30,225 bases of DNA, taken from contig CAYQYU010000012.1 of NCBI GenBank assembly GCA_964421955.1, forward strand, positions 1 to 30,225, in the 5' to 3' direction. The stretch comes from an uncultured archaeon (GTDB taxonomy: Archaea; Nanohalarchaeota; Nanosalinia; Nanosalinales; Nanosalinaceae). Position numbers and translations under genes: made by a program. How positions within the stretch are numbered: position 1 is the stretch's first letter; the number at the start of each line of letters is the position of its first letter. Below, piece after piece: positions 5,985 through 21,200 of the stretch. The notes beneath the pieces were generated by a model that saw only the letters and a program-made list of their open reading frames with translations, was not told the origin of the DNA and searched no databases.

Positions 5985-6479
5985 AGGAGGCGGAGTGGCT
6001 GTCCCCGCTGGCGTTCCGTATCGCCGCATCTCTTGCGAGAAACGGCGGACGCATCCTGACGGATGCTCGACCCCATAGAACCTTGCGGTTCGCTGAGTGA
6101 GGAAAGTCCCGACACCTCGACGGGCAATAAGTTGCCTTTCGTAGAGAAGATCCTTGATCTTCGAAACGTGGCAGGTGCAAGACCTGTGGACCGAGAGGTC
6201 TCAGAGACACGCCTTAACTCGTTTAAAAACGAGGTAGGCGGCTCATTGAGCAGCAGAAACGACACGTCTCCTGTAATGGCCAGGATCACGGTAACGGCGT
6301 CAAAGCCAGCGTCGTGTGGAGCCAGTTCAGGAGGATCGGTGAAACGTGGCTCAGACACGGGGTGCAAGCCGAAGAGCGCAAGCACGCATTTCGAAGAAAT
6401 GCTGGTTTCCAGCAAATCTTCGATTTGCGTCGAGTCAAATGCGGCCATAGAAACAGAATCGGGCTTACTCCCGCCACCT
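5985..6479 (+). ncRNA. rnpB: RNase P RNA (about 495 nt)
   Basis: GAGGAAAGTCCCGA (6099-6112) pairs in P4 with ACAGAATCGGGCTTA (6453-6467); P1 AGGAGGCGGAGT/ACTCCCGCCACCT; P2 TGGCTGT/GCGGCCA; P5 CACCTCG/CGGGGTG; conserved CAGAAAC and TGAAAC. Confidence 0.93.
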
Positions 6480-6515
6480 GAAACACTTTTGAAGATACGC
6501 GACAAGGTTTAGAAC

Positions 6516-6783: not shown

Positions 6784-6936
6784 GGACCCGTAGCTCAGCC
6801 CGGACAGAGCAACCGGCTTCTACCGAACTTCTGAAAGTTCGATCATCACGAGGCATTCCATGAATGCCTCTGGGTCGGCTTTTAGGGCTCTCGGCAAGAT
6901 ACCGGTAGGTCGAGGGTTCAAATCCCTCCGGGTTCG
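6784..6936 (+). tRNA. tRNA-Arg(TCT) with a 78-nt intron at 37/38 (6823-6900)
   Basis: Acceptor GGACCCG/CGGGTTC, D arm GCTC/GAGC, anticodon stem ACCGG/CCGGT with TCT at 6819-6821, T arm GAGGG-TTCAAAT-CCCTC; relaxed BHB; no encoded CCA; TATA-like TTATTTAA about 6741. Confidence 0.93.
6824..6848 (+). repeat. 25-bp palindromic module, copy 1 (inside the tRNA-Arg intron)
   Basis: CGAACTTCTGAAAGTTCGATCATCA, identical to 20976-21000. Confidence 0.95.
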
Positions 6937-6944
6937 AATCTCCT

Positions 6945-7718
6945 ATGCCACGAACCAATTCTCTGGAAGACGCAGAAGTGATTGTGCAGAAGCTTCCCTC
7001 GGACATCGGCATCCACAGGAATCCGCGGAAAGGAACGCTGGATGCGCCGGAGAAGGTTCTTGAGGATTTCGAGTTTGAGAAAACAGTTCTTGTAACAGAG
7101 GTTTTCCCCGACGAATTCTCGCTGGAGAACACGCACAGACGTATCGAGGACAACACGGACGAGATCCGGAACTTCTCCAGACCTCTTGTCTCCATAGGCG
7201 GCGACCACTCCGTCTCCTACCCCGTCATAAGGGCGATGAAACGGGAGCATCCCGATATGAAGCTAGTGTGGCTCGACGCCCATCTTGACCTGAAAGAGAA
7301 AGTCAACAACCACGTGTCGCACGACGTCGTGGTGCGGGAGCTGCTGGAGCACGGCTTCTCGGAGGAAGAGATCTGGTTCGTGGGAATAACCCATGTGGAC
7401 GACGACGAGCAGGATTTCCTGGACGGACGAGACCTGAGAGTGTTCAGGTCGGGCGAACTGGAAGAGTTCAGACGAAAGTTCAATACAAGTGAACAGCACG
7501 TGTATCTCAGCGTAGATATAGACGTCCTAACCCGGGAAGAAGCTCCAGGAACCGGCTATCCGGACGGAGAACTCGATCTAGAGCAGGTTCTGGAGGTAAT
7601 CGATCTCGTAAGTCCCGATTACGCCGACCTCGTCGAGGTCGCGCCCTCGCTTGATGAAGATAAGAACACTATAGATAGCGCGAGAAAGATACTTGCCAGG
7701 TTAATGAAACAGTTTTGA
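6945..7718 (+). CDS. Arginase/agmatinase (ureohydrolase) family protein
   Basis: GGDHS, DAHLD, SVDIDVL, APGTG and DLVEV motifs. Confidence 0.92.
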   Translation: MPRTNSLEDAEVIVQKLPSDIGIHRNPRKGTLDAPEKVLEDFEFEKTVLVTEVFPDEFSLENTHRRIEDNTDEIRNFSRPLVSIGGDHSVSYPVIRAMKREHPDMKLVWLDAHLDLKEKVNNHVSHDVVVRELLEHGFSEEEIWFVGITHVDDDEQDFLDGRDLRVFRSGELEEFRRKFNTSEQHVYLSVDIDVLTREEAPGTGYPDGELDLEQVLEVIDLVSPDYADLVEVAPSLDEDKNTIDSARKILARLMKQF

Positions 7719-7742
7719 AGCTTGAAGCCGGAGAGAAATTAC

Positions 7743-9398
7743 ATGAAGCGACTCAAAACACAGCTCGCAGAAGAAATCTCAGACTTTCTGGATACAGAGA
7801 TCCAGGAATCAGACATAGAGGTTCCAGAGCCGGAGCACGGCGACTTTGCCTATCCTGTCATGAGGGCTGCCTCAGAACTCGGCGAGAACCCGCGGGAACT
7901 TGCGGAAAAAGCCGGGCGAGAACTCGAGGAACTGGATATTGTTGAGGAAATAGAGGTCGCGGGACCGGGCTACCTCAACTTCTACCTCGACCGGGAAAGG
8001 TATTCCAGGATCATAGTGGAGCAACTCGAATCGGAAAAAATGGGTGTCACGCCTCAAGAGGGCAAGATGGTGGTAGAGTTCTCTTCTCCAAACGTTGCAA
8101 AGCCTATGCACGTCGGCCACTTCAGGAACAACGCGCTCGGGGATGCTCTCCAGAGAATCATGAGGTTCGTGGGCTACGACGTAACTTCTGAGAACTACCT
8201 GGGAGACTGGGGCACACAGTACGGCAAGCTGATATATGCGTTCAAGGAGTTCGGCTCCCGGGAAGAGTTCAGAGAGGCGCCAATGGAGCACATGTACTCG
8301 CTCTACGTCAAGTTCCACGAGGAGATGGAAGACGATGAAGAAATGGAGAAGAAAGGCCGTGAATGGGCGGCAAAGATTGAGGAAGGCGATGAGGAAGCGG
8401 TCGAACTCTGGGAGATGTTCCGTGACGCATCGATCGAGTACCACGAGAAGGACTACGACCGGATGGGAATCGATTTCGACCGCTGGATGGGCGAATCAAA
8501 GGTTGTAGAAGGCACCAGAGAAATGGTCGAGGAATGGATTGACGGAGGGAAACTTGACCGTGACGGGGACGGGAGCGTCTTCCTGGAGTTTGAAGACGAA
8601 GATCTGCCAGGCACTGTTCTGCTCAAGGAGGACGGCTCGACGCTGTACCTCACAAGAGACCTCTACAACCTGAAGAAGAGAAATAGTGAAGGATTCAACT
8701 ACAATCTCTACATCGTGGGTTCGGAGCAGGAACTCCACTTCCGGCAGGTTTTTGCGGCCGCAGAGAAACTGGGGCTCGACCCTGAAGGCTCGGAACACAT
8801 CTCCTACGGCCTCCTTTCACTCCCGGATGGAAGCATGTCATCCCGCCAGGGCCGGATAATCCGGCTGGAGGACGTGCTTGATGAAGCTGTCGAGAGAGCT
8901 GAAGAGAAGGCCAGAGAAAAGATGGATAGATCGGTCGAGAACGCTGAATACATCGGTATAGGAGCTGTAAAATACGCCAACCTTTCCGTTTCGAGAAGAA
9001 AAGATATCGAGTTCGACTGGGACCGCGCCCTGTCATTCGAGGGTGACTCTGGCCCCTATCTACAGTACTCGAACGCCCGGGCAAAGAGCATACTCGAGAA
9101 AGCTGGAGAGGAAGGAGAACTCGGGGAAGAGCCTGGAGACGAGGAGTACCTCCTCCTGAAGAAGCTGGCAGAGTTCCCGGAGAAGGTTGAAGCCGCGGCA
9201 GAAAGCAGGGACCCGGTCAAGGTGGCCCGGTACCTCTCCTCGCTTTCGGAAGAGTTCAACAGCTTCTACCACAGCTGCCCCGTAATTGACGCGGAAGAAG
9301 CTGCAAGAAAAAGGAGGCTGAAGCTGGTCGAGCTGTTTGTCGAAGTGACAGATAAAGGTCTTGAGATGCTCGGAATCGAGCCTCTAGACCAGATGTAG
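7743..9398 (+). CDS. argS: Arginine--tRNA ligase
   Basis: VEFSSPNVAKPMHVGH (HIGH), GDWGTQ, SMSSRQG (KMSKS), GPYLQY, FYHSCPV. ATG 7743 preferred over TTG 7722. Confidence 0.97.
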   Translation: MKRLKTQLAEEISDFLDTEIQESDIEVPEPEHGDFAYPVMRAASELGENPRELAEKAGRELEELDIVEEIEVAGPGYLNFYLDRERYSRIIVEQLESEKMGVTPQEGKMVVEFSSPNVAKPMHVGHFRNNALGDALQRIMRFVGYDVTSENYLGDWGTQYGKLIYAFKEFGSREEFREAPMEHMYSLYVKFHEEMEDDEEMEKKGREWAAKIEEGDEEAVELWEMFRDASIEYHEKDYDRMGIDFDRWMGESKVVEGTREMVEEWIDGGKLDRDGDGSVFLEFEDEDLPGTVLLKEDGSTLYLTRDLYNLKKRNSEGFNYNLYIVGSEQELHFRQVFAAAEKLGLDPEGSEHISYGLLSLPDGSMSSRQGRIIRLEDVLDEAVERAEEKAREKMDRSVENAEYIGIGAVKYANLSVSRRKDIEFDWDRALSFEGDSGPYLQYSNARAKSILEKAGEEGELGEEPGDEEYLLLKKLAEFPEKVEAAAESRDPVKVARYLSSLSEEFNSFYHSCPVIDAEEAARKRRLKLVELFVEVTDKGLEMLGIEPLDQM

Positions 9399-9455
9399 GC
9401 AGGTTACAGACAACAGTTCTTATTAACAGGCTCCGACCATTTTTAAGACAGGGCT

Positions 9456-11369
9456 ATGTCGGTTTTATCACGGGTCAAAAAAGCATTCTCCTCGAAGGAG
9501 ATTCAGGAAGACTTTGATTACGAGCCAAGTGAAAGTAGCCACTTCCAGTTCAACGAAGATCCGGGCGTCAAGATCACGACGGAAGCGGAAACAGTTGACG
9601 AGATCGACGTAAAGTATCCGCTTATCAAGCCCTTCGCGAACGCACACATCAAGTGGAACAAAGAAGAGAAAGAGCTGATGTACTACGTCGAAGAACCTAG
9701 CCTGAGTGACGAGGACGAAGAGCTGTACAGGAAGATAAAGGAAAACCTGTCCGAGAAGCTCGATGTCTCCCTGAGCTCAATGCAGGAACGGGAGAAGGTC
9801 ATCGGCTACCTGGAGAAGAAGATAGATGAGCTCCTGCTTGAACTCGGCCTTGAGCTTTCCGACCAGCAGCACGATAAGATAATGTACTTCATCTACCGCG
9901 ACTTTGTCGGTCTCGGAAAGATCGAGCCTTTAATGCACGACCCTTACATAGAGGACCTGGGATGTGACGGCACCGACATACCTATCTTTGCTGTCCACTC
10001 CGAATTCGGCTCCATAAAGTCAGACGTGAGGTTCGAGGACCAGGAAGACCTGAAGAACCTCGTGGTCAAGCTGGCGGAGCGAGCAGGAAAATACGTCTCG
10101 TACGCAAATCCGCTGCTCGACGGTGCTTTACCTGATGGTTCACGTGTCAACGCATCGCTCACTGAGGACGTTACATCGCACGGACCGACTTTTTCGATAA
10201 GAAAGTTCCAGGAGGAGCCGTTCTCATCCGTCGACCTGATGGATCTCGGAACCGTGTCCGCCGGTTTAATGGCGTACATGTGGCTCCTGATGGAGTACCA
10301 GCAGTCCGTGCTGATCTGCGGTGGAACGGCCACAGGTAAGACAACGTTCCTGAACTCCGCGGTATCTTTCATACCTCCAGAGGACAAGATCGTCTCGATT
10401 GAAGACACGCGTGAACTCAGGCTTCCGCACGAGAACTGGATTCCGTCTGTCACGAGAACCATGTTTGGTACAGATGATAAATCCGATGTCGACATGAACC
10501 AGCTGCTGAAAGAATCCTTCAGGGAGAACCCTGACTACGTGGTGGTCGGTGAGGTCCGTGGTGAAGAGGCCTCGGTGCTCTTCCAGGGAATGTCCTCGGG
10601 ACATCCCTCACTCGGTACGATGCACGCCTCGGGGCCGAACGATGTTGTGAAGCGGCTTGTGACACCCCCGATCTCGCTTTCCGCCGCACTTGTAGAATCT
10701 CTCGATGTCATCGTCCAGATGACCCACGCAAAGGGAGTCGAGGAGAGCGCCCGCCGTGTTAGAGCTGTGCACGAGGTACAGAAGGTCATGGGAGAATCAC
10801 AGAGCGCAAGGACCAACGAGGCATTCACATGGACCGCCAAAGACGACTCATACAAGATGCGTGGAGAACCCTACCTCTTTGACCAGATCAGCAGCGATTA
10901 CGGCGTTTCAAAGGACAACCTCAAGGAGGAGCATGAAAACAGGACTAGATTACTCGAATGGCTCCAGAAGAAAGGAGTCAAGGACTTCGACAGCGTGTCC
11001 AAGATAATTGCGGAATACTACAAGAGCAAGGAAGACATCCTGAAAATGGTGAACTCGGAGGACGGGGAATCCACTCTAAACGAGATAATCGAGGCAGAGC
11101 AGAAAGTCGATATTACAAGGCCCGATCAACTGGACAATGCAGTGAGGGCCGAGAGAGAATCAGGAGGCCTCGAATCCGAGATTGAAAACATGGACGCAGG
11201 TCAGGCACTTGAGGAGAAAATCAGGGAGGAAGAAAATCCGGTCGAAGAAATTGAAAAAAGGCTGAAAGACGAACAGAGAAAGGTTGACAGCACAAGAGAT
11301 GCGGACAGGGATAAGGACCCTTTTGAGGACTCTAAAGAAAACGTCGATGCAAACCCGTTCGAGGCCTGA
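9456..11369 (+). CDS. Type IV pilus / type II-IV secretion ATPase (PilB/FlaI/VirB11 family)
   Basis: Walker A GGTATGKTT, SIEDTREL, RENPDYVVVGEVRG, TMHA; long acidic C-terminal tail. Confidence 0.95.
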   Translation: MSVLSRVKKAFSSKEIQEDFDYEPSESSHFQFNEDPGVKITTEAETVDEIDVKYPLIKPFANAHIKWNKEEKELMYYVEEPSLSDEDEELYRKIKENLSEKLDVSLSSMQEREKVIGYLEKKIDELLLELGLELSDQQHDKIMYFIYRDFVGLGKIEPLMHDPYIEDLGCDGTDIPIFAVHSEFGSIKSDVRFEDQEDLKNLVVKLAERAGKYVSYANPLLDGALPDGSRVNASLTEDVTSHGPTFSIRKFQEEPFSSVDLMDLGTVSAGLMAYMWLLMEYQQSVLICGGTATGKTTFLNSAVSFIPPEDKIVSIEDTRELRLPHENWIPSVTRTMFGTDDKSDVDMNQLLKESFRENPDYVVVGEVRGEEASVLFQGMSSGHPSLGTMHASGPNDVVKRLVTPPISLSAALVESLDVIVQMTHAKGVEESARRVRAVHEVQKVMGESQSARTNEAFTWTAKDDSYKMRGEPYLFDQISSDYGVSKDNLKEEHENRTRLLEWLQKKGVKDFDSVSKIIAEYYKSKEDILKMVNSEDGESTLNEIIEAEQKVDITRPDQLDNAVRAERESGGLESEIENMDAGQALEEKIREEENPVEEIEKRLKDEQRKVDSTRDADRDKDPFEDSKENVDANPFEA

Positions 11370-11375
11370 AACAAA

Positions 11376-12014
11376 ATGCAGCGAATAAAATCCGGAATCC
11401 ACAACTTTGACCGTCTCCTGGGCGGCGGCATACCTGACAGAGAGCTCATACTGGTCAAGGGAGAGCCTGGATGCGGAAAATCCAACCTTGGAATGGAATA
11501 CCTTTACAGGGGCGCCCAGAAAGGAGAGAACGGTCTCTACGTTTCCTTCCAGGATACTGAGCCAGAGATACTCCGGACCACGACATTCGACTGGGACTTC
11601 GGGGAGATGGTCGAGGAAGACACCATCAACATAACCAAGTTCGACCCCTACAGGTACGAGCAGATCGCCAACATGCTTCGTTCAACTGTGAAGGAGAACG
11701 ACGCCACGCGCGTGGTCCTGGACCCTATAACCGATCTCGATCTGTATATTGATTCACGGAAGGACCAGAGGAAGAATCTCCTGAAGATCAAAGAGGAGTT
11801 GAAAGACCTTGGGTGCACAACAATTCTTGTTGCGGAGAAGGAAGAGGCCACAGAGCTGGAGGAGGAGATTGCCGACGGGATTGTGGAGCTTGAACTTCTG
11901 CGGAAAGAGGGCCAGGTCGAACGCCATATACTGGTGAAGAAGCTGAAAGGTTCAGACTATAACCACAGCGTCCATAGCTACATAATCAACAGCGACGGAA
12001 TAAAGATACAATGA
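11376..12014 (+). CDS. KaiC/RAD55-like single-domain RecA-family ATPase
   Basis: RIKSGIHNFDRLLGGGIP, Walker A GEPGCGKS, RVVLD, VKKLKGS. Confidence 0.9.
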   Translation: MQRIKSGIHNFDRLLGGGIPDRELILVKGEPGCGKSNLGMEYLYRGAQKGENGLYVSFQDTEPEILRTTTFDWDFGEMVEEDTINITKFDPYRYEQIANMLRSTVKENDATRVVLDPITDLDLYIDSRKDQRKNLLKIKEELKDLGCTTILVAEKEEATELEEEIADGIVELELLRKEGQVERHILVKKLKGSDYNHSVHSYIINSDGIKIQ

Positions 12015-12118
12015 CGCAAACCAGAGATTTGCTCAGAGCGAAGACCGGGTGGTCTTCTCTAAGCAGAAAACGCTACCTGTTTTCGAGAGACGAAAACACA
12101 TGCGGTGTTTTCGAATGA
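12010..12118 (+). repeat. Four-hairpin insert flanked by AATGA direct repeats, open as a 35-aa mini-ORF (12011-12118)
   Basis: Hairpins at 12016-12032, 12040-12057, 12066-12084 and 12091-12113; AATGA at 12010 and 12114. Confidence 0.75.
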
Positions 12119-13041
12119 GTGAAAGCGATCCTTTCCAGAGTTCTTTCAGGGCCAGGATCAAGAGGGCGATGCAGACAGATAATACCGCTGCAGCAGCCAA
12201 CGCTCTTTTTGGACCCACGGTTGACAGCCACAGCGAGTATTTCGAGGACCTGAAGACCGACATGAAGAAGGCGGGCATGGACGTGCTCTTCAGAACCTAC
12301 GTTTCGAAAATGTTCCTTTACACCATCGTGACCTTCATCCTCGCTATGGTCTCGGGAATTTTCTACACATTCATCAACTCTCCCGCTCCACAGACTGCCT
12401 TGAGACTGATAGTTGGCATGCCCTTCGCGCTCTCGATTCTCGTCCTGGGCGGGATGTACATGTACCCATCACAGGTCGCGAAGAGGAGGGAGAAAAATAT
12501 AGATGAGAACCTGCCGTTTGCGCTGAACCATCTGAGCGCGATCGCGACCTCGGGTATACCGCCAAGCTCGATGTTCCAGCTCCTGCAGGGCTTCAAGGAG
12601 TATGAGGGAATTGCGCAGGAGGCCGGAGAAATTTCCCGCAGAGTCAATGTCTTCGGTGAAGACCTCACCACCGCATTAAGGGAAGTGGCGGAGCGGTCTC
12701 CGAGCGAGGACTGGACCGAAGTGCTGTACGGCATCCTTTCAACAGTTGAAACCGGGGGAAATCTCGACGACTTCCTGAAGGAGCAGGCCGACGAGGCGCT
12801 TTTCGACTACAAGATGGAGCGCGAAAGAGAAATCGAGCGGCTCAGCACTTACGCGTCGTTCTACACCGCAATCCTGATAGCTGCACCGGTTTTCCTGGTA
12901 GTTATACTCGCGGTCATGAACCTGCTTGGCGGCCAGCTAATGGGCTTCGCCATCAGGGATTTGATGTGGCTTGGCGTCCACATAATCATACCTGTCATAA
13001 ACATCCTGTTCATAATATTCCTGACAATCAAGGTGGACTAG
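12115..13041 (+). CDS. Type II secretion system F family (TadC/PilC/FlaJ-like) membrane platform protein
   Basis: IDENLPFALNHLSAIATSG, FGEDLTTAL, ETGGNL, several TMs. ATG 12115 (GGTG 7 nt upstream) preferred over GTG 12049. Confidence 0.92.
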   Translation: MSESDPFQSSFRARIKRAMQTDNTAAAANALFGPTVDSHSEYFEDLKTDMKKAGMDVLFRTYVSKMFLYTIVTFILAMVSGIFYTFINSPAPQTALRLIVGMPFALSILVLGGMYMYPSQVAKRREKNIDENLPFALNHLSAIATSGIPPSSMFQLLQGFKEYEGIAQEAGEISRRVNVFGEDLTTALREVAERSPSEDWTEVLYGILSTVETGGNLDDFLKEQADEALFDYKMEREREIERLSTYASFYTAILIAAPVFLVVILAVMNLLGGQLMGFAIRDLMWLGVHIIIPVINILFIIFLTIKVD

Positions 13042-13123
13042 AATCGAGCTAATAAGCAAAAAATACAGGCTGAAACTCAAGAACCTCTGGAGGAAGTATG
13101 AAGACCTGATTGTACTTGTCGCG

Positions 13124-14257: not shown

Positions 14258-14299
14258 AAAGAGAATATAATTAAAAGCAGAGATAACGCTTCAATTAAT

Positions 14300-14722
14300 A
14301 TGGTCAGGAAAGGTATATCCCCTCTTATATCCGCAGTGCTGCTACTGGCGGTGACTCTCTCAATGGCCGCACTGTTTTCAGGATGGGGTCCTAGCCTCGT
14401 CAACACCGTTACAGACAGCACCGAGAACCAGACCGAGAGAACGATCAACTGTAACGAGGCCGGCATCGAGATAATAGCAGCCAAGTACTACCCTGCCGGA
14501 CAGACCTCTATCGTTGTCAGGAACACGGGAAGGTCTGAGCTAGACAATCTCGAAGTTTCGGCCTGGAAAGGCGATCTACCTATGAACAACAGTCTGCTCA
14601 GCGCTCTCGCGCAGGGCAACTTCACCACCTCCAACGTCACCACCTCGTCGAAACCCGACGACGTCAGGGCGTTCTCCAGAGACTGCACCTCAGTCCAGGA
14701 TACGCACGAGGAAATAGGCTGA
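14300..14722 (+). CDS. Archaeal type IV pilin
   Basis: Class III signal peptide RKG/ISPLISAVLLLAV, VRNTG motif, Cys pair. Confidence 0.9.
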   Translation: MVRKGISPLISAVLLLAVTLSMAALFSGWGPSLVNTVTDSTENQTERTINCNEAGIEIIAAKYYPAGQTSIVVRNTGRSELDNLEVSAWKGDLPMNNSLLSALAQGNFTTSNVTTSSKPDDVRAFSRDCTSVQDTHEEIG

Positions 14723-14729
14723 TAAGATA

Positions 14730-15164
14730 ATGAAAGGTATCTCGGAGATAGTTTCCGCCGTCGTGATTCTCGGAATCGGCATTTCCCTCGTCTCCCTCTA
14801 CGCGGAGTGGGCCCCCACCTTTGCTGAAGATACAGTGGGCGATTTCTCGAACAGGTCAGGCCAGCAAATAAAGTGCAGCAATGCCGCCTTCTCTATAAAG
14901 GATGCGGAGTACGACAAGTCGAGCAACTCCACCATTTTCTACCTCGAAAACGACGGCACCATACGTTTCGCTGGCGGAATAACGGTTGGCGTCTTCAACT
15001 CCACTACAGTCGAGATCGGAAGGAAGGCGATACAGAACCTGGATGTCGAACAGGAGAAGAGGATAAGCGTGGATAGCCCCCGAATACCTTCCTACATAAT
15101 CGCCACGAGCAGGGACTGCCCGGATGTCGAGGCGACCGAGGAGAGGATCAACGTCCACAGGTAA
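14730..15164 (+). CDS. Archaeal type IV pilin
   Basis: MKG/ISEIVSAVVILGI, LENDG, SRDC shared with the previous pilin. Confidence 0.88.
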   Translation: MKGISEIVSAVVILGIGISLVSLYAEWAPTFAEDTVGDFSNRSGQQIKCSNAAFSIKDAEYDKSSNSTIFYLENDGTIRFAGGITVGVFNSTTVEIGRKAIQNLDVEQEKRISVDSPRIPSYIIATSRDCPDVEATEERINVHR

Positions 15165-15202
15165 ACGGAAGAAATGTAAATCTGGAGGCGGCAAATTCTG
15201 AT

Positions 15203-15400
15203 ATGTCAGGAAACTTCTGGTTGATCGAGATATACAGCAATGATACAGCGAACGTATCAATAACCTCGAAAGAAGAGATAGAGGCGCTGAAAAATACGGA
15301 TAGCATCGAGGACTGGCAGTTCGCACCTACTTCAGAGGTCTCCGAGGACGACATGATCGAACGGGCAGAAGAACACGGGTACGAGCACGACCCCTGGTAG
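15203..15400 (+). CDS. Small acidic hypothetical protein
   Basis: 65 aa with host-like acidic composition; fills the gap. Confidence 0.65.
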   Translation: MSGNFWLIEIYSNDTANVSITSKEEIEALKNTDSIEDWQFAPTSEVSEDDMIERAEEHGYEHDPW

Positions 15401-15439
15401 CCCGAAGCCATTTTATGGGGCGGCCCAAAACTTCTACCG

Positions 15440-16522
15440 ATGAGAAAAATATTAGCCGCCGCAATTCTCCTCCTGCTTGCCTCCTCCGCTGCAGGAGTTG
15501 ATTTTGAAACCATCCTTCTCGACGATGACAGGGATGAAATATTCCAGATGGACGGGTTCATCTTCTCGTCCTCTGAAAACACGACCGAGGTTATCATAGA
15601 ATACAACCTGACGCTAGAGGTGAACTACAACAAGACCAGTCTGAAGAACTTCACCACCACCCTCGCCCACGGAAACAGGACTGTAGCCGCGGACAGCAGC
15701 AAGCCCGGAAACCTGAAGCCCGGGGAATCCCTTTCAGGCTTCAAGACCATAGAGTCCAGGACACCGCCCGATCTTGTTGACCGGGTAAAAATCCTTCTCG
15801 AATACCAGAAAACCGTCTCTGACGGCAGCAAGGTGAAAGAAAACGCCAGCAACTACTTCCTTTACGACCTCAACGACAGGAATCCCAGGATAAAAACTCT
15901 CGAAACTTCTTCTCCCGAGGTCAGGCGCGGCCAGAACATTACAGTCACCGCAGAAACAGCCGACATCTCCAGGCTAAAGACTGCGGAAACCAATTTCTCA
16001 AAGACCGGGAATGACACGTTCCGTGCAAACCTTACCGTTCCCCAGGAAACCAGTGAAGGTGAGCCTCCCGTATACACTATCATAGACGGCCGCGGAAATG
16101 TCTTCCAGAAATATCTAGATGCCCGGGTGATCAATGAGCCTCCCGAGCTAGAGCTGGAGTTCGACTGGAATGTAACACAGGGAGAAAACACAGAGATAAC
16201 TATCATGGACTCGGACGATTACAGGGTCAACAAGACCTACATAGAGTTCCGGGGCAGGAGATACCGGAAGGGGGACTCCAAGAAGATAACTATTCTCACA
16301 GAGGCCCTGGATCCCGGTACATACCGTTTCAAAGCGGTAACAGTGGATAATGAGGGTGCCAGAACCACCAGGACTGGAGGCCTATCCATTCCTGGAGAAG
16401 GAACTCCAGCAAAGAAACCGGGAACAGGAAGTCAGGAAACCCAGAACCGTGGAGACGAAGAAAACCCGGGCAGCCTCACGTTCGTAGAATCCATAATCAA
16501 ATTCCTGAAATCGCTCTTCTAG
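15440..16522 (+). CDS. Secreted/surface glycoprotein with predicted beta-sandwich (Ig-like) domains
   Basis: Signal peptide, many N-x-S/T sequons, PGTYRFKAVTVDNEG, amphipathic C-terminus FVESIIKFLKSLF. Confidence 0.8.
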   Translation: MRKILAAAILLLLASSAAGVDFETILLDDDRDEIFQMDGFIFSSSENTTEVIIEYNLTLEVNYNKTSLKNFTTTLAHGNRTVAADSSKPGNLKPGESLSGFKTIESRTPPDLVDRVKILLEYQKTVSDGSKVKENASNYFLYDLNDRNPRIKTLETSSPEVRRGQNITVTAETADISRLKTAETNFSKTGNDTFRANLTVPQETSEGEPPVYTIIDGRGNVFQKYLDARVINEPPELELEFDWNVTQGENTEITIMDSDDYRVNKTYIEFRGRRYRKGDSKKITILTEALDPGTYRFKAVTVDNEGARTTRTGGLSIPGEGTPAKKPGTGSQETQNRGDEENPGSLTFVESIIKFLKSLF

Positions 16523-16552
16523 AACAGATCCTGGATATTGTCCTGAGTAAAA

Positions 16553-16668
16553 TGGCCGATCCCGGATTTGAACCGGGGACAACTGCATAACTGAACTATG
16601 TTCAGTGAAACGCCGATAGAATCGGCGTGTCTTCAGTGCAGCGCTCTCCCAGGCTGAGCTAATCGGCC
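16553..16668 (-). tRNA. tRNA-Phe(GAA) with a 42-nt intron at 37/38 (16589-16630)
   Basis: Minus strand GGCCGAT/ATCGGCC-A, GCTC/GAGC, CTGCA-CT-GAA-G|intron|A-TGCAG, CCCGG-TTCAAAT-CCGGG; BHB helix CTGA/TCAG. Confidence 0.94.
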
Positions 16669-16968
16669 GTCAAAGTGCTACAGGCTTAATGGAAAAGATG
16701 AGCTTTAAGAATCAATCCTTGACCAACGCATCTTTCCCCCGAAATAAGCCAGAAATAGATTCTAAAGACCTTATAAACAGTTCATAAAAGCCTAAAAACA
16801 TATAGAAGCTTCAATAAAATTCTGATTCTATTTTAAGAGATTAAAAAACTTTTTCATACATTCGAAAACTCTTAAAAACCTTTAGAAAGTGAATTAAACG
16901 ATCTTGAAACTTTATGAAGCCAGAAAACGTTTTTAACAGGCTTGAACTTAGTTGGAACTGGTGAATAG

Positions 16969-17484
16969 ATGAGCTTTCAAGGACAGGATAACAACCACTT
17001 GCCAGATTCAAACTCACGTAACGAAACAACGAGGGTCGAGCAACTGTTTGTACCATCTGGAGTTGTCGTGGATAGATCCCTGGTTGACAGCTACAGCTCA
17101 GAAATCAGGAACTATATTGAAACCAACGATTATGGCGCGGTCAGGTGCGACTTTGAGGAACTCAGCCGGCTGTACCGACAGGAACTAAGAGAGCAGACCA
17201 CAGACTACACCGCAGAATTTGAAAACGAGAAAAGTGTCAAATACAACTTCGGGATGGCGATCGAAAAGGCTGTTACCGAGGAGACCTCGGACCTGATAGG
17301 AAAACCTGATATCGAGCAGATTGTGCGCGAGACTGTTGACAGTGGAGGCTACGACTACCTGAGAGACGACAGCATGAGAACCGTGAAAGAAGGCGCTTAC
17401 AGCTGGAGATACCTTGGCCAGGAACTGGAGAGCATCGCAAACAGGAAGGTGAAACCGGATCAGCCAGACCGCCCCGAGCAATAA
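16969..17484 (+). CDS. Hypothetical protein, paralog of 20325-20816
   Basis: 171 aa; aligns by eye with the 20325 ORF. Confidence 0.75.
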   Translation: MSFQGQDNNHLPDSNSRNETTRVEQLFVPSGVVVDRSLVDSYSSEIRNYIETNDYGAVRCDFEELSRLYRQELREQTTDYTAEFENEKSVKYNFGMAIEKAVTEETSDLIGKPDIEQIVRETVDSGGYDYLRDDSMRTVKEGAYSWRYLGQELESIANRKVKPDQPDRPEQ

Positions 17485-17538
17485 TCGTGGACTCGGGAAA
17501 AGGCTGTAACTATAAATCTTTCTCGACAAATCCAGGAC

Positions 17539-18516
17539 ATGACAGAAGAAACGCGGGACAACGTGATCCCGGGAACGGATAAACCCCACAGCGGGGAAGA
17601 GGTCGAGGGCTACAGTTTCGACAAGGAGTTCTCCCTCAATGATCTGATAGACAGTTACAGGACCACGGGTTTCCAGGCCACCCACCTGGCGGAGGCCGTC
17701 GATATAGTCAAGGAGATGCAGGAAGAGGACGCCAAGATTTTCCTCACCTTCACCTCGAACATCGTCTCCTCCGGTCTAAGGGAAGCGGTAACCTACCTTG
17801 CGAAAGAGAACCTGGTCGACGTTATGATCACCACCTCCGGATCGGTTACAGAGGACGTTATCAAGACGTTCCACCCGTTCAAGATGGGAGAATGGGACGC
17901 GGATGAAAAGGCGTTGCGGGACCAGGGAATCAACCGGCTCGGCAACATCTACGTTGAAAGCGATGCCTACGTGAAACTCGAGGAGTATCTAACCGGGGAT
18001 TTCTTCCCTGACTTCTTCGAGGAGAAAAAGTTGAGGACGCCGACAGAAGTCGCGAGAGAACTTGGTAGGGATTTGGACGACGAGGACTCGTTCCTGACGC
18101 ACGCCGCAAGAAACGGGATACCTGTCTTCTGCCCCGCGCTGATCGACGCGGAGATAGGAGACTTCCTTTTCTACTACCGGCAGGAAGAAGATCCTGAAAT
18201 AGGGATCGAGACTCTCGATGACTGGGATTCGCTGATCAAAGAATCGATAGAGGCAGAGAAGACCGGCATCATCTGTGTGGGTGCAGGGGTCCCAAAGCAC
18301 CAGGCCATAATGAGCAACCTTTTCCGGGGTGGCGCCGACTACGCGGTCTATCTCTCGACAGGCATGGAAGGCGACGGCTCTCTCTCCGGTGCGCCTCCAA
18401 AAGAGGCAGTTTCCTGGGGAAAGATCAAGCAGAGCCGGAAGAACTATACACAGGTTGAGGCAGAGGCCACGCTCGTGTTTCCGCTGCTGGTTGAGGCCGC
18501 TTTCAGGCAATGCTAG
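17539..18516 (+). CDS. dys: Deoxyhypusine synthase
   Basis: TGFQATHL, TSNIVSSGLRE, GINRLGNI, DGSLSGA..EAVSWGK with the catalytic Lys. Confidence 0.96.
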   Translation: MTEETRDNVIPGTDKPHSGEEVEGYSFDKEFSLNDLIDSYRTTGFQATHLAEAVDIVKEMQEEDAKIFLTFTSNIVSSGLREAVTYLAKENLVDVMITTSGSVTEDVIKTFHPFKMGEWDADEKALRDQGINRLGNIYVESDAYVKLEEYLTGDFFPDFFEEKKLRTPTEVARELGRDLDDEDSFLTHAARNGIPVFCPALIDAEIGDFLFYYRQEEDPEIGIETLDDWDSLIKESIEAEKTGIICVGAGVPKHQAIMSNLFRGGADYAVYLSTGMEGDGSLSGAPPKEAVSWGKIKQSRKNYTQVEAEATLVFPLLVEAAFRQC

Positions 18517-18872
18517 TTGAGTTTTGTGAGCTTGTCTCTGACCTGGTCAAGAGGGGCCGCAAGGTTCTTCGATTCCAGGGTACTCATCGGAACCCACTGG
18601 CAGTTCTGTGGGCTTCCCTCGACTTCGACCCGGTAAGGCTGCCAGACAAACTCTTCTCCTTTAGCCTCAAAGGTCTTCTTCAGTTTTCGCTTGTACCTCA
18701 CGGTTACGGAGTCGCAGCCGGTAATCTCGGTAGTAACTCTTTCAGCCGCATCTGCGCTTAATTCGCCTTTCTGCCTCACTCCGCTGGGTACGTTCCAGAC
18801 CTGGTTTTCCTCATTGAACATCATAAGAATTTTCTTGCCCCGAACCACGAGGCCTCCAGAAATCTCGTCCAT
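18513..18872 (-). CDS. Nudix-fold protein with a degenerate Nudix box
   Basis: WNVPSGVRQKGELSADAAERVTTEITG, plus CQWVP. Confidence 0.75.
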   Translation of the reverse strand: MDEISGGLVVRGKKILMMFNEENQVWNVPSGVRQKGELSADAAERVTTEITGCDSVTVRYKRKLKKTFEAKGEEFVWQPYRVEVEGSPQNCQWVPMSTLESKNLAAPLDQVRDKLTKLN

Positions 18873-18955
18873 AGCAGTAATTTCGTGGCGACACGTTTAA
18901 AGCAAGTTAATTAAGGACTTAACTCGGGAAACCCCAAGATTGAGTGTGGCGAAAA

Positions 18956-19777
18956 ATGGAATACATCGAACTCCAGGGAGAAAAGGTGCCGGGACTTGGT
19001 TTCGGCACCTGGCAGCTGAAGGGGCAAGAATGCTACAGGAGCGTGCAGGACGCGCTTACAATCGGCTACAGACATATTGACACGGCCCAAGCCTACGGAA
19101 ATGAGGCCCGGGTAGGACAGGCAATAGAGGACTCAGAAGTCTCGAGAGACGAAATCTGGCTGACCACCAAGCTCTGGAGGGACAACCTTAACCGGCGGAA
19201 CCTGAAGAGGTCCATGAATGAAAGTCTGGAAAAGCTCCGGACCGATTACGTCGATCTATTGCTGATCCACTGGCCCTTCCCGGGGATGGATCTTGAGGCC
19301 GTCCTGGAAGAAATGTCGGAAATCGTGGAGGAGGGAAAGGCAAGGAACATAGGTATAAGCAACTTCACCCCTGAACAGATAGATGAGGCCACGAGTCTTT
19401 CAGAAAAGCCACTACTGACCGACCAGGTCGAGTACCACCCTTTCCTGGACCAGAGCGAGGTTCTTGAAAAATGCCGTGAAAGAGACATGATGCTGACCGC
19501 CTATTCTCCTGTCGCGAGAGGGAGCGTGATCGGTAACAAGGTGCTGGAGAGTATAGGCTCGAACTACGGAAAGACTGAGGCACAGGTCGCACTCCGGTGG
19601 TTAATTCAACAGAAGAACGTCGCGGCGATACCCAAGGCCGCGTCCCAAGAACACAGAGAGGCCAACTTCGATATCTTCGATTTCAAGCTAACAGAGGATG
19701 AAATGAAGGATATCAAGAAACTGACATCGAGAAACGACAGGAAGGTAAACCCTGGTTTCGGGCCCGACTGGGGCTGA
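18956..19777 (+). CDS. Aldo/keto reductase
   Basis: LGFGTW, GYRHIDTAQAY, TTKLW, DLLLIHWP, IGISNF, AYSP, IPKA. Confidence 0.96.
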   Translation: MEYIELQGEKVPGLGFGTWQLKGQECYRSVQDALTIGYRHIDTAQAYGNEARVGQAIEDSEVSRDEIWLTTKLWRDNLNRRNLKRSMNESLEKLRTDYVDLLLIHWPFPGMDLEAVLEEMSEIVEEGKARNIGISNFTPEQIDEATSLSEKPLLTDQVEYHPFLDQSEVLEKCRERDMMLTAYSPVARGSVIGNKVLESIGSNYGKTEAQVALRWLIQQKNVAAIPKAASQEHREANFDIFDFKLTEDEMKDIKKLTSRNDRKVNPGFGPDWG

Positions 19778-19793
19778 AAGTCAAGAAAAATTA

Positions 19794-19937
19794 TTAATCA
19801 GATATATCCTCGTATTTCTCGGCTTTATCCATCAGTTCTTCGATTACACCGGAAAAGCTCTGTCCTGGACTCTTTTTTTCCTTCAGCTTCTCGTATATGC
19901 GGTCCTTAATCCCGATGTTGGTCGTATATTTCCCCAT
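19794..19937 (-). CDS. Small RHH DNA-binding protein (VapB-like antitoxin type), 47 aa, not in the ORF track
   Basis: Manual translation MGKYTTNIGIKDRIYEKLKEKKSPGQSFSGVIEELMDKAEKYEDISD matches the TIxIxxxxYxxL..K..xSFSxVIxxL pattern. Confidence 0.82.
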   Translation of the reverse strand: MGKYTTNIGIKDRIYEKLKEKKSPGQSFSGVIEELMDKAEKYEDISD

Positions 19938-19983
19938 ACCGATTATTTCTATCATTAACTAAATAATTCCTTCCCACAGACAG

Positions 19984-20013
19984 TTATAAATGTACACAAA
20001 GAATTGTGTGCAT
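19984..20013 (+). promoter_or_regulatory. Histone promoter TATA box with an adjacent inverted repeat
   Basis: TTATAAA at 19984-19990; ATGTACACAA-agaa-TTGTGTGCAT at 19990-20013. Confidence 0.6.
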
Positions 20014-20024
20014 GGGTGTTTTAG

Positions 20025-20222
20025 GTGGAATTTTCAACGCTGGCAATGAGAAAGATTATCAAGAGCCAAACGGGCAAAAGAATCTCTGACGCGGGAGCAC
20101 AGGAGCTTGGCGACGTCCTGGAAAGGTTCGCCGGCGACATCGCAGAGGAAGCCATAGCCGTCGCCAGGGACGACGGCAGGAAGACCGTTAGAGCCGAAGA
20201 CATCAAGAAGGCACTGTCCTAG
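20025..20222 (+). CDS. Archaeal histone (HMf-like)
   Basis: 65 aa, colinear with HMfB; R19 and GRKTVRAEDI (R52-T54-D59); GTG start. Confidence 0.93.
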   Translation: MEFSTLAMRKIIKSQTGKRISDAGAQELGDVLERFAGDIAEEAIAVARDDGRKTVRAEDIKKALS

Positions 20223-20324
20223 AACCATTCCAGCATCAGCTACTATTCCTGAACAGCACCTTAGCACATAACTACAACACCCTATAATAATTCTCGGCTT
20301 CTCCAATATGACTGGCCCATCATT

Positions 20325-20816
20325 ATGAGTCTAGCCGATAAATTCAGATCCCTGAGATCCCTCGAATTCCGAAAAACCCCTGGAAACTACCAAATAGGAG
20401 AAAGAGATCTTAACAGTTTTTCCGAGTACAACAAAGGCTCTGCAAAGATAGTGGCGGATTCAAGATTTATTGAGAGCTATATCTCACAGATAGAACCCCA
20501 TATAGAAACAGGAGACTATGAAAAAGTAAGCTTTGACAGCGCCAAATTGAACTCCCTGTACCACCAGGCGAAAAACAGCCAGGTACACGATCACCCAGGA
20601 AGCTTCGATGTGGGATACAGCGTGGACTACAGCTTCGGTGTCGCGCTCGGGAAGGCTGCCAACAGCGGACCAGGGCTGGTAGATAACCAGGAACTGCTCC
20701 AGGCTGTCAACAGGATACATCGGTACCGCCCGGCCATGTACCATTCCGGAAGCGCCAAGATGATGAAAGACGGTGCCATCGAATGGGAGCAGGTTATAGA
20801 GGAACTGGGAGAATAA
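20325..20816 (+). CDS. Hypothetical protein, paralog of 16969-17484
   Basis: 163 aa; shares SY..I..IET.DY..V.D...L..LY.Q and SV.Y.FG.A..KA. Confidence 0.75.
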   Translation: MSLADKFRSLRSLEFRKTPGNYQIGERDLNSFSEYNKGSAKIVADSRFIESYISQIEPHIETGDYEKVSFDSAKLNSLYHQAKNSQVHDHPGSFDVGYSVDYSFGVALGKAANSGPGLVDNQELLQAVNRIHRYRPAMYHSGSAKMMKDGAIEWEQVIEELGE

Positions 20817-20819
20817 GAG

Positions 20820-20973
20820 CGCCCAGGGCAGGGCTCGAACCTGCGACCACCACGTGTCTGCACCTTTTTTCTCGGCGTCAGCCGAGCACCGGTGGAACCG
20901 GCGATTGCGTGCCGCACTGAGCGTAACCAGGCGGTTTAACAGCGTGGCGCTCTACCTGCTGAGCTACCTGGGC
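20820..20973 (-). tRNA. tRNA-Asn(GTT) with an 81-nt intron at 37/38 (20856-20936)
   Basis: Minus strand GCCCAGG/CCTGGGC-G, CCACG-CT-GTT-A|intron|A-CGTGG, GCAGG-TTCGAGC-CCTGC; canonical BHB (CTGT/GCAG helix, ACC/GGT outer helix). Confidence 0.94.
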
Positions 20974-20975
20974 AA

Positions 20976-21000
20976 CGAACTTCTGAAAGTTCGATCATCA
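20976..21000 (+). repeat. 25-bp palindromic module, copy 2 (immediately upstream of tRNA-Asn)
   Basis: Identical to 6824-6848. Confidence 0.95.
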
Positions 21001-21095
21001 TACAGGGCTCCAGTGGATGCCAGAACCCTGACTGTAGTTTAGTGGTCGCTAACTATTTTTTTAAACATGAACTAAAAATGAAAGAAGATTTGAGG

Positions 21096-21195
21096 CCGGT
21101 TAGCCCTACGAAGAAACTGAAAAGTTGCTTCTTGAGAGCAGCTTCCTTGCAGAAGCTGCGTCTGGGCTACCCGGGCATTACTTAGCGGAGCGTAA
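21096..21195. repeat. Intergenic composite hairpin element
   Basis: TAGCCC/GGGCTA (21101-21169) encloses hairpins 21110-21131 and GCAGCTTC-cttgca-GAAGCTGC (21138-21159). Confidence 0.6.
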
Positions 21196-21200
21196 CACGC

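Follow-up and report, generated by a model that had tools for sequence, protein, structure and literature searches.

Two tRNA loci share a 25-nt hairpin module

The window, the whole 30,225-nt stretch of DNA analyzed here, belongs to a nanohaloarchaeal genome of 0.92 Mb (98.8% complete; G000) and carries a tRNA-Arg(UCU) and a tRNA-Asn(GUU) gene, each with an intron. The features at the two loci are as follows.

6077 to 6479, + strand: candidate RNase P RNA (full-length RF00373 match, 49-53 bits, E ~1e-12, below the gathering score of 84)
6784 to 6936, + strand: tRNA-Arg(UCU) gene, exons 6784 to 6822 and 6901 to 6936 (Rfam tRNA 50.7 bits; aragorn anticodon tct)
6823 to 6900, + strand: tRNA-Arg intron, 78 nt, after position 37 (aragorn with introns allowed)
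6824 to 6848, + strand: A module copy 1, hairpin 6824 to 6841 (7 bp, loop CTGA) and tail ATCATCA 6842 to 6848; sense, at the 5' edge of the tRNA-Arg intron
6850 to 6870, + strand: variable hairpin after the copy 1 tail, GAGGCATTC-CAT-GAATGCCTC
20820 to 20973, - strand: tRNA-Asn(GUU) gene, exons 20937 to 20973 and 20820 to 20855 (Rfam tRNA 55.1 bits; aragorn)
20856 to 20936, - strand: tRNA-Asn intron, 81 nt, after position 37
20904 to 20934, - strand: B' module (hairpin with loop GUUACGCU, then CACGCAAU) at the 5' end of the tRNA-Asn intron
20976 to 21000, + strand: A module copy 2, identical in letters to copy 1, in the leader of tRNA-Asn (- strand)
21003 to 21030, - strand: variable hairpin of the leader, CAGGG...CCCTG, containing a CTGGAGCC motif also present in other copies
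21053 to 21066, - strand: TATA-like box GTTTAAAAAAATAG, upstream of the leader element
21177 to 21200, - strand: B'-type module immediately 3' of the topoisomerase VI-A stop codon (21201 to 21203)

The 25-mer CGAACTTCTGAAAGTTCGATCATCA occurs exactly twice in the window, both times on the + strand and at the positions given in the original prediction, and the accompanying claim that such a match is not expected by chance also held, as 0 of 100 dinucleotide-preserving shuffles contained one even at up to 3 mismatches. Copy 1 is intronic and starts 1 nt past the tRNA-Arg 5' splice site; copy 2 starts 2 nt past the mature tRNA-Asn 5' end, in the 5' flank and 3' of the TATA-like box. These predicted placements agree with Rfam and aragorn, and the position of the box is conserved in the orthologous loci of two relatives (G023 and G007); it is a putative promoter. 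Outside the 25 nt the flanks are unrelated, and each copy precedes a different hairpin (6850 to 6870 versus 21003 to 21030), again as proposed. The tails of other copies also precede similar hairpins, with different stems.

The tRNA-Arg intron consists of 1 nt, the A module, the variable hairpin and a 3' part able to pair back onto the A module, and once excised is predicted to fold into a rod (-32.6 kcal/mol, z -3.98, equalled by 0 of 200 shuffles). Both inserts, 78 nt in tRNA-Arg and 81 nt in tRNA-Asn, follow tRNA position 37, as in archaeal bulge-helix-bulge (BHB) introns (Rfam alignment, aragorn). In a canonical BHB, two 3-nt bulges enclose a 4-bp helix and are themselves flanked by helices. 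With the anticodon stem enforced, the minimum free energy fold of the tRNA-Arg splice site has a central helix of only 3 bp, bordered by a 2x2 and a 1x2 loop, and manual drawing allows a 3-bp helix next to a 3-nt bulge; we model the motif as a near-canonical rather than a canonical BHB. A candidate splicing endonuclease is encoded elsewhere in the genome (PF01974, 96.8 bits, single match in a 194-aa open frame, G000:C1:99416-99697). As leader RNA, copy 2 would read UGAUGAU-CGAACUU-UCAG-AAGUUCG, ending 2 nt ahead of the mature 5' end, and the tRNA-Asn leader is predicted to fold into two hairpins (-25.4 kcal/mol, z -3.83). RNase P is presumably the enzyme that removes it.

The strands of the two genes bear out the prediction that the copies have opposite orientations in their transcripts and, if transcribed, place complementary 25-mers in them. 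This opposition follows from a general rule of the family described below, in which the hairpin always points toward the exon or gene edge and the tail away from it.

A same-strand direct repeat with one copy inside and the other beside a tRNA gene could also represent attL and attR, bounding an integrated element of 14 kb from 6824 to 21000. We give this reading virtually no credence: the gene content of the interval refutes it, with housekeeping genes for arginase, arginyl-tRNA synthetase, type IV pilus genes, deoxyhypusine synthase and aldo-keto reductase and no integrase or viral gene, and tRNA-Arg is intact on either side of copy 1.

The 25-mer belongs to a family of hairpin-plus-tail modules in Nanohaloarchaeota

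The window copies had been singled out as a pair, but an exact-match search of the genome and its relatives dissolved that status. The genome holds 14 strict copies, along with further variants with 5-8-nt loops at additional tRNA 5' ends; outside the window it has two more exact and 10 near copies, and the core 23-mer is identical in other genera. A relaxed pattern matched in 34 of 70 genomes of the phylum, compared to 0 for a reversed control pattern. Scanning 185,579 species genomes for exact matches gave 39 stretches, 33 of them labelled Nanohaloarchaea, Nanohalobium, Nanosalina or Nanohalarchaeota, and the module is present in records titled complete chromosomes of nanohaloarchaeal strains. 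From these sequence matches the element family seems specific to Nanohaloarchaeota. Copy number varies widely within genera (7, 0 and 0 in g16; 8, 2, 1, 0 and 0 in g21).

The consensus A module is a 7-bp hairpin, NNAACUN-CUGN-NAGUUNN, with the tail AUCAN'CA. Across 22 distinct 25-mers, 97.7% of cells are paired versus 79.1% after shuffling, a level reached by 0 of 500 shuffles. The hairpin itself is 98.7% paired, with two-sided changes in 4 of its 7 pairs; the AACU/AGUU stem sequence is almost invariant. The fourth loop base covaries with the fifth tail base (pair 11-23: AU 12, UA 6, GC 3, GU 1, unpaired 0).

The orthologues of both window copies in the sister genus g8 differ from them by compensatory stem changes, from which it follows that both insertions are old. 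The orthologous intron of G007 carries CGACCTT-CTGA-AAGGTCG-ATTATCA, with a compensatory A4>C / T15>G relative to copy 1; the orthologous leader module reads CCAACTT-TCAG-AAGTTGG in G023, also a compensatory change, and is a variant in G007. Because these sister-genus genomes were assembled independently and have related modules at the same two positions, an assembly artefact, which had been named as a way for the observation to fail, is unlikely.

The original prediction had taken the exact match to indicate recent mobility or conversion. Mobility is retained at the level of the family; a recent exchange between the Arg and Asn loci is not, given the unrelated flanks and old orthologues. That exchange, with the two excised RNAs acting as a functional sense-antisense pair, would account for an exact 25-nt identity with 0 expected by chance and for copies that oppose each other relative to their transcripts. 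We consider it very improbable nonetheless, since the identity stops at 25 nt, twelve other exact and near copies exist in the same genome, the core recurs in other genera, and the module occupies both loci in g8, so that neither copy is recent. Every leader-type copy is, moreover, complementary by construction to every trailer-type or intron-5'-type copy, and we found no evidence of any action of one excised RNA on the other. We read the window copies as separate, old members of an insertion-element family, and their identity is best read from the sequences as constraint on an end module and not as recent copying.

Modules sit at the borders of RNA units

The edge that the module faces may be the 5' or 3' end of a tRNA, either side of an intron, a stop codon or a ribosome-binding site. 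In G000, 8 of the 14 strict copies are separated by 0-3 nt from a genuine tRNA exon edge: the intron 5' edge of Arg-tct, the intron 3' edge of Thr-cgt, the 5' ends of Asn, Gly-tcc, Pro-tgg and Asp, and the 3' ends of iMet and Arg-tcg. Four of the remaining copies adjoin a duplicated tRNA 3' fragment and two are at protein-gene junctions. The position rule holds in relatives too. The B' module type found in the tRNA-Asn intron recurs in elements that lie outside genes, and the Arg-gcg, Thr-ggt, Gly-tcc and Trp introns likewise have it at their 5' edge.

Relatives differ in whether an orthologous site is filled or empty, and filled sites occur in either orientation. Among 14 relatives in which tRNA-Arg(tct) was located, the gene is intronless in 5, has an A-type intron in 1 (G007) and has other introns in 8. 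For tRNA-Asn, found downstream of topoisomerase VI-A in 11 relatives, there is a leader module in 2, no intron in 2 and an intron in 9 (18-109 nt, various types). The site after topoisomerase VI-A, B'-type in the window, holds an A-type module with the stop codon within its stem in G023, G017 and G054, and a decayed module in G007.

These positions also suit a quite different explanation, in which the module is a host processing or insulation signal, a cis-acting RNA element kept at tRNA, exon and cistron borders, whose spread is secondary. A protein might bind it, or cleavage might occur at its base, so as to define or protect the ends of RNAs. In its favor, modules lie 0-2 nt from mature tRNA ends, splice sites, stop codons, ribosome-binding sites or start codons, terminal exon bases sometimes supply the outer stem pairs, and the near-invariant AACU/AGUU stem with its loop-tail covariation suggests specific recognition. 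The long-term conservation with compensatory changes, seen between G000 and G007 in the tRNA-Arg intron and between G000 and G023 in the tRNA-Asn leader, points the same way; together with the 0-2 nt spacing, this makes the modules look like sequences that function in place and not dead copies. We nevertheless find this account doubtful, if far from negligible. The RNA differs with orientation (3' tail AUCAUCA versus 5' tail UGAUGAU, with complementary loops), which is difficult to reconcile with a single RNA-binding site. The module is missing from most of the genome's tRNAs, congeneric species including one with a 99%-complete genome have 0 matches, the copy after topoisomerase VI-A has decayed in G007 although its surroundings are the same as in G023, and one copy (C3) lies upstream of a TATA-like box and not at an RNA end. 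The candidate RNase P RNA and splicing endonuclease are present, so that no new end-forming activity is needed.

Some copies are flanked by direct repeats of variable length

At 10 of 34 copies, the outer flank is repeated directly 52-112 nt inward, with repeats of 11, 12, 15, 16, 17, 18 or 26 nt; the other 24 have no repeat of at least 10 nt. The segments between repeats, module included, are 77-137 bp long and non-coding. At the junction between DP1 and DP2, the genes for the two subunits of DNA polymerase D (PolD), the repeat is a perfect 17 nt, and the DP1 stop and DP2 ribosome-binding site are both retained. DP1 lies upstream of DP2 in 19 relatives, with an intergenic gap of at most about 30 nt in 15 of them, and inserts of 60-120 nt separate the genes in G045, G046 and G019. 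The G045 insert begins with an A module in the opposite orientation and its congener G016 is empty at this site; an A module at the junction also occurs in another metagenome-assembled genome (L171). Many elements combine an A end with a different B end. True terminal inverted repeats are few, and an A module at one end with its inverted form at the other is found in the iMet trailer, the C8 array and both tRNA-Arg flanks in G006.

Some of these repeats raise the possibility that the sequences are miniature integrative elements moved by tRNA-targeting tyrosine recombinases, the flanking duplications being attL and attR and not target-site duplications. Trailer-type copies are bounded by 15-24-nt repeats running from the tRNA T-arm to the 3' end, which match the identity blocks of integrases that target the T-loop; a unit made up of the element and a tRNA 3' fragment is repeated in tandem at C8 (period 111) and, in G023, after iMet; and the genome has four tyrosine recombinase genes, three of them beside tRNA genes. 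Against this, the segments between repeats extend only 52-112 nt beyond the module and are non-coding, intron-type copies lack such repeats, and repeats also occur in tRNA 5' parts (L007, L020, L162) and at the PolD junction, which is unrelated to tRNA, so that one integrase with one att site would not suffice. We therefore judge this origin improbable.

The search for a mobilizing enzyme, or for an autonomous partner with the same ends as MITEs would have, covered the profiles Y1_Tnp, Cas1, RVT_1 and Phage_integrase. Profile searches found no Cas1, Y1 transposase or reverse transcriptase in the 98.8%-complete genome. Across the phylum, Y1 transposase is present in only 4 of 70 genomes and the motif in 34; the distribution of the enzyme does not follow that of the motif, and G039 and G058 have the transposase but no motif match.

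Comparison with known elements

Bacterial REP/BIME sequences and MITEs are short, non-coding, multi-copy palindromes that lie between genes in both orientations, with a conserved stem and short flank, compensatory stem changes and copy numbers that vary between close species. The family described here resembles them in its palindromes, orientations, stem and flank, and copy number, and like MITEs it is short, non-coding, multi-copy (the 14 strict copies) and polymorphic in insertion among relatives. It differs from REP/BIME in having no RAYT/Y1 transposase, either in its own genome or in step with the motif across the phylum, and no GTAG-type REP head. It departs from both REP and MITE in its preference for tRNA exon edges and the 37/38 intron site and in long duplications that, instead of the fixed-length target-site duplication of MITEs, range from 11 to 26 nt where present.

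Box C/D sRNAs are housed in archaeal tRNA introns (tRNA-Trp, tRNA-Met), and they too are a conserved small motif carried by a tRNA intron; RUGAUGA is found in the reverse complement of the most frequent module variant, and the module's loop is CUGA. We rejected this identity: the variants UGUUGAU and UGGUGAU do not keep the letters that resemble a C box, and the module has neither a guide region nor paired C/D and C'/D' boxes. An Rfam search found no RNA family matching the module at E up to 5.

Closely similar sequences in introns of unrelated tRNA genes of Thermoproteales have been attributed to intron transposition, with gain at the DNA level proposed and the mechanism given as unknown (Fujishima et al. 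2010, as described in PMC4090602). Sequences common to introns of unrelated tRNA genes are shared with that case as described there. Here, by contrast, the module also occurs outside introns (leaders, trailers, protein-gene junctions), in both orientations and with flanking target duplications; only the 25-nt end module is conserved, not the whole intron; and the host is a DPANN archaeon whose single splicing-endonuclease match lies in the 194-aa frame. In the account of Sugahara et al. 2012 (PMC3293823), integration into archaeal tRNA genes by a 1.8-kb, recombinase-encoding element leaves tRNA fragments. A duplicated tRNA fragment adjoining an intact tRNA gene, and intron gain tied to a mobile element, are common to both, whereas the elements here are 40-140 bp, non-coding and end in shared hairpin-plus-tail modules. 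Repeats bounding an integrase-encoding element, as expected of att sites, were not found, the bounded segments being the 77-137 bp ones above and the 14-kb interval being housekeeping.

A model for tRNA intron gain

We consider it somewhat better than an even chance that the elements ending in the 25-mer, as their conserved end module, form a mobile, REP/MITE-like family from which tRNA introns, leaders and trailers arise. The elements would be short, modular, palindrome-rich insertions of about 40-140 bp with two hairpin-plus-tail ends, each A-type or B-type, the hairpin facing outward and the tail inward, and with one or two variable hairpins in between. They would integrate as DNA, facing either way, where one functional RNA unit borders on its surroundings, often duplicating 11-26 bp of the target directly. 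An insert landing at tRNA position 37/38 would become an intron, one at the mature 5' or 3' end a leader or trailer, and operon stop/start junctions would form a third target class. Palindromic stems allow the module to fold alike on either strand, and an element would therefore stay self-contained and leave the tRNA undisturbed; selection may favor such harmless folding. Ordinary enzymes would then remove the insert, the splicing endonuclease from introns, RNase P from leaders and RNase Z from trailers.

Several observations weigh against mobility. No mobilizing enzyme emerged from the four profiles searched, a duplication of variable length fits no known transposase and is missing from most copies, and the A and B ends are unlike, with few true terminal inverted repeats. 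The conservation across genera and the tight spacing to RNA ends, which look like function in place, count against it as well. A more specific version of the mobile-family reading, which we advance only tentatively, is that an active, strand-symmetric element lands at position 37/38, tRNA ends and cistron borders and becomes an intron where a BHB can form. It would be moved by an unrecognized enzyme that makes long, variable duplications, and its recognition site would be marked by the covariation between loop and tail.

The origin of archaeal tRNA introns is an open question, and a 2026 preprint about tRNA introns in Asgard archaea closes its abstract with 'how they arrive remains open'. The module family may show how they arise, as one module ties 37/38 introns to the leaders and trailers of tRNAs and to plain insertions between genes that have target duplications, all in the same genomes. 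It also explains contig breaks at tRNA loci and under-calling by tRNA finders in nanohaloarchaeal genomes. With sites that are empty, filled or swapped among relatives, the family offers a concrete candidate vehicle and a testable system, and if the active-element reading is true, it would be the first concrete vehicle for archaeal tRNA intron gain.

The two window copies and their tRNA genes

The exact 25-mer CGAACTTCTGAAAGTTCGATCATCA occurs twice in the window, at 6824-6848 and 20976-21000, both times on the + strand, and none of 100 shuffles yielded a match even with up to 3 mismatches permitted, in agreement with the original prediction that the match is not due to chance. Copy 1 starts 1 nt within the tRNA-Arg intron. 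Copy 2 starts 2 nt past the mature 5' end of tRNA-Asn, where it is the reverse complement in the sense of that transcript, and the TATA-like box proposed upstream lies at 21053-21066 and is kept in two relatives. The original description of the two copies is correct. ARAGORN at its defaults found no tRNA in the window, and the genes emerged only with Rfam and with ARAGORN set to allow introns. According to Rfam, three tRNA genes in the window are interrupted, and the 23S rRNA 3' end lies there too.

Features near the two copies
6823-6900, + strand: intron of tRNA-Arg(UCU), ARAGORN with introns allowed
20856-20936, - strand: intron of tRNA-Asn(GUU), ARAGORN with introns allowed
6077-6479, + strand: candidate RNase P RNA, full-length but sub-threshold match to the archaeal family RF00373 (49-53 bits; gathering score 84)

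A 149-aa ORF (6063-6512) overlaps the RNase P RNA match and has no Pfam match, and is for these reasons probably no gene. In the predicted fold, the Arg intron can form a near-canonical, though not canonical, bulge-helix-bulge, and the intron folded as a whole gives a rod, with the module paired to the intron's 3' part. A single frame in the genome, of 194 aa, matches the splicing endonuclease.

Between the copies lie 14 kb with genes for arginase, arginyl-tRNA synthetase, type IV pilus proteins, deoxyhypusine synthase (75-81% identity with Nanohaloarchaea MAG proteins) and an aldo-keto reductase. These housekeeping genes rule out an integrated element with the two copies as its ends. A 505-aa ORF near the window's end (28391-29908, +), whose D5_N and DUF5906 domains are of primase-helicase type, may belong to an integrated mobile element.

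The source genome (922,649 bp, 27 contigs, 98.8% complete), of which the window is contig C12, has heavily interrupted tRNA genes, with inserts of 42-190 nt in 29 of 40 ARAGORN calls, some of them doubtful, and in 14 of 24 Rfam tRNA matches. Of the sequencing runs listed for this DNA, none was of RNA. In contigs from four DNA runs of one study, joints at tRNA introns traced to tRNA genes of other organisms, and the pieces listed for the likely source run were broken at tRNA loci; these contigs shed no light on strain variants or the assembly.

A family of hairpin-plus-tail modules

The original prediction concerned the Arg and Asn copies. Searches of the genome and its relatives show that they belong to a family: the genome holds two further exact copies (contigs C3 and C4), 10 near copies, and variants with 5-8-nt loops that precede further tRNA genes. 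A relaxed pattern (AACTNCTGNNAGTTNNATCANCA, at most one mismatch) gave 124 matches in 34 of the 70 genomes of the phylum, and the same pattern read backwards gave none in these genomes. Within the same family, 30 of the other 49 genomes had matches; the counts for the remaining families were 1/1, 2/10, 0/1 and 0/8. Genomes of other genera (G020, G003, G008, G046, G064 and G042) also contain the exact 23-nt core shared by the window copies. Copy number varies widely between genomes of one genus; genomes rich in copies include the source genome (G000), G045, G063, G064 and G053. When 185,579 species genomes were scanned for exact matches, 39 stretches were returned (NZ_CP180230.1 and CP046106.1 are among the records with matches), labeled nanohaloarchaeal (33), 'uncultured archaeon' (2), Hydrothermarchaeota or Methanobacteriota MAGs (3) and a Clostridium MAG (1), the last of which looks like chance. 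At the three loci in Hydrothermarchaeota- or Methanobacteriota-labeled MAGs (L157, L181, L186), the module reads GCAACTT-CTGA-AAGTTGC-ATCATCA and is accompanied by a hairpin, with direct repeats of about 45-60 nt on the two sides, on contigs without a nanohaloarchaeal label; this would mean loose labels or a family that extends further.

Fold prediction makes the first 18 nt of the 25-mer a 7-bp hairpin on both strands. Across 22 distinct copies, 97.7% of cells pair versus 79.1% in shuffles (0 of 500 equal). Both sides change in four of the seven stem pairs, and sliding the partners out of register lowers pairing to 24-48%. The copies had been selected for the stem, which biases these figures towards structure. 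Outside the selection criteria, loop base 4 covaries with tail base 5 (columns 11 and 23 of alignment A1), pairing in 22 of 22 copies (AU 12, UA 6, GC 3, GU 1); by our count over all 124 matches, there are 118 Watson-Crick combinations, 2 G-U and 4 mismatches. The B-type end, the other hairpin-plus-tail end of the family, appears by eye to have similar loop-tail complementarity. On steric reasoning, an H-type pseudoknot is unlikely to underlie this loop-tail pairing with a 4-nt loop. Rfam placed no family over the module at gathering thresholds, nor at six loci with E up to 5, and hammerhead and C/D-box readings were dropped by eye as core letters are absent or variable.

Modules abut tRNA exon and gene edges

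The hairpin always points towards the exon or gene edge and the tail away from it, which accounts for the opposite transcript orientations of the window copies. For eight of the genome's 14 strict copies, the distance to a genuine tRNA exon edge is 0-3 nt, against our estimate of about 0.02 such cases by chance from about 140 exon edges in 0.92 Mb. Four adjoin a duplicated tRNA 3' fragment and two sit at protein-gene junctions.

Strict copies at tRNA exon edges
Intron edges: Arg-tct (5' edge), Thr-cgt (3' edge)
tRNA 5' ends: Asn, Gly-tcc, Pro-tgg, Asp
tRNA 3' ends: iMet, Arg-tcg

Contexts in relatives match: leaders, trailers, both intron edges, stop codons (at times within the module stem), and places where translation starts (ribosome-binding site or start codon), as at dnaJ. 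A promoter reading of the reverse-complement module was rejected, the dnaJ and tRNA cases having no TATA-like letters 26-33 nt upstream of the abutted start. In one relative (G006), tRNA-Arg(tct) has the module in leader and trailer alike.

Both window loci could be followed in relatives. tRNA-Asn lies 3' of topoisomerase VI-A in 11 of them, and its leader module is found only in G023 and G007, the closest by topoisomerase VI-A (94% identity); the G023 stem, CCAACTT/AAGTTGG, bears a compensatory change. tRNA-Asn is intronless in G023 and G017; in the remaining nine the introns measure 18-109 nt and belong to unrelated types. The G018 locus is left out of these counts. In 14 relatives tRNA-Arg(tct) lies 5' of arginase, intronless in five and with other introns in eight; G007 has the same A-type intron, with a compensatory stem CGACCTT/AAGGTCG. 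These modules at orthologous loci place both window copies before the split of two genera, and the recent origin proposed for the 25-mer pair is not borne out. Judged from these comparisons, the identity of the window copies is constraint, not recency, and introns at the tRNA-Arg(tct) site are lost, gained and swapped.

Such conservation in situ, together with abutment at 0-2 nt, favours the main rival reading, a host signal that would define RNA ends or serve as insulation; we consider it less likely, and patchy presence and decayed copies weaken it.

Insertion signatures

Direct repeats of the outer flank, 11-26 nt long and 52-112 nt past the tail, accompany 10 of 34 copies. They span the T-arm through the 3' end where the element is 3' of a tRNA gene, and the tRNA 5' part where it is 5' (loci L007, L020, L162). 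Between the genes for the DNA polymerase D subunits DP1 and DP2 (C4:64779), a perfect 17-nt repeat preserves the DP1 stop and the DP2 ribosome-binding site. DP1 is upstream of DP2 in 19 of 28 readable relatives, spaced by at most about 30 nt in 15 of the 19; G045, G046 and G019 have inserts of 60-120 nt. Locus L076 is left out of these counts. The G045 insert opens with an A module in the opposite orientation, and that of G046 is a B-type element; their respective congeners, G016 and G017, are empty at this site.

Contig C8 carries a tandem array of period 111, and contigs C2, C8, C17 and C18 end inside copies; both features fit a repeat family. The array unit (C8:1-260) consists of the element plus a tRNA-Asp 3' fragment with an altered T-loop, GGGTAGAAATCCC, a fragment also found 3' of tRNA-Asp in G005. 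The tRNA-Asp locus is broken in the assembly, as several contigs end inside these repeats.

Besides A, a census by eye distinguishes B', a GAAAATC-type hairpin and a GGCUCCAG motif. At 21177-21200 (-), immediately 3' of the topoisomerase VI-A stop, stands a B'-type hairpin with loop GTTACGCT and a tail; in G023, G017 and G054 that stop codon is inside an A-type stem. At 640-690 (+), just 3' of the 23S rRNA end, a GGAAATCTTTGATTTCC hairpin resembles the GAAAATCTNNGATTTTC hairpins that occur in the tRNA-Lys(ctt) trailer and, close to the 3' end, in several tRNA introns. Other recurrent modules in the genome are AACCTCAAGTTCTCC...GGAGAACGAGGACC at intron 5' edges and GGCTCCAG-TAGGTGCC in tRNA introns. 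In the 190-nt Thr-ggt intron, one element seems to be nested within the B' module of another.

Candidate enzymes and precedents

Cas1, Y1 transposase and reverse transcriptase were not found in the genome, and Y1 transposases across the phylum do not track the module. Three of the genome's four tyrosine recombinase matches adjoin tRNA genes; the C2 match is a C-terminal piece only, directly after the tRNA.

Tyrosine recombinase matches by tRNA gene
C6:63117-63698: Gly-tcc
C2:58775-59032: Leu-tag
C7:2243-2773: Arg-gcg

Bacterial REP/BIME elements and MITEs are nearest in form to the elements described here. Literature searches on nanohaloarchaeal repeats and tRNA introns and on archaeal tRNA intron mobility found no description of them; one paper goes no further than counting the intron-bearing tRNA genes of two cultivated strains (PMC10266531). 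The nearest precedent is the tRNA intron 'transposition' inferred in Thermoproteales, of unknown mechanism (PMC4090602); another is an element of 1.8 kb that bears a recombinase and is linked with tRNA disruption in Caldiarchaeum (PMC3293823). In contrast, the unit here is tiny and non-coding with hairpin-plus-tail ends, is common to introns, leaders, trailers and operon junctions, has long and variable duplications, and resides in a DPANN lineage.

On the sequence evidence we lean towards a mobile, REP/MITE-like family of elements, with the 25-mer as its conserved end. Owing to their palindromic stems, the ends of such elements would fold alike on either strand, and inserts would persist where ordinary tRNA processing removes them and also where they separate cistrons harmlessly.
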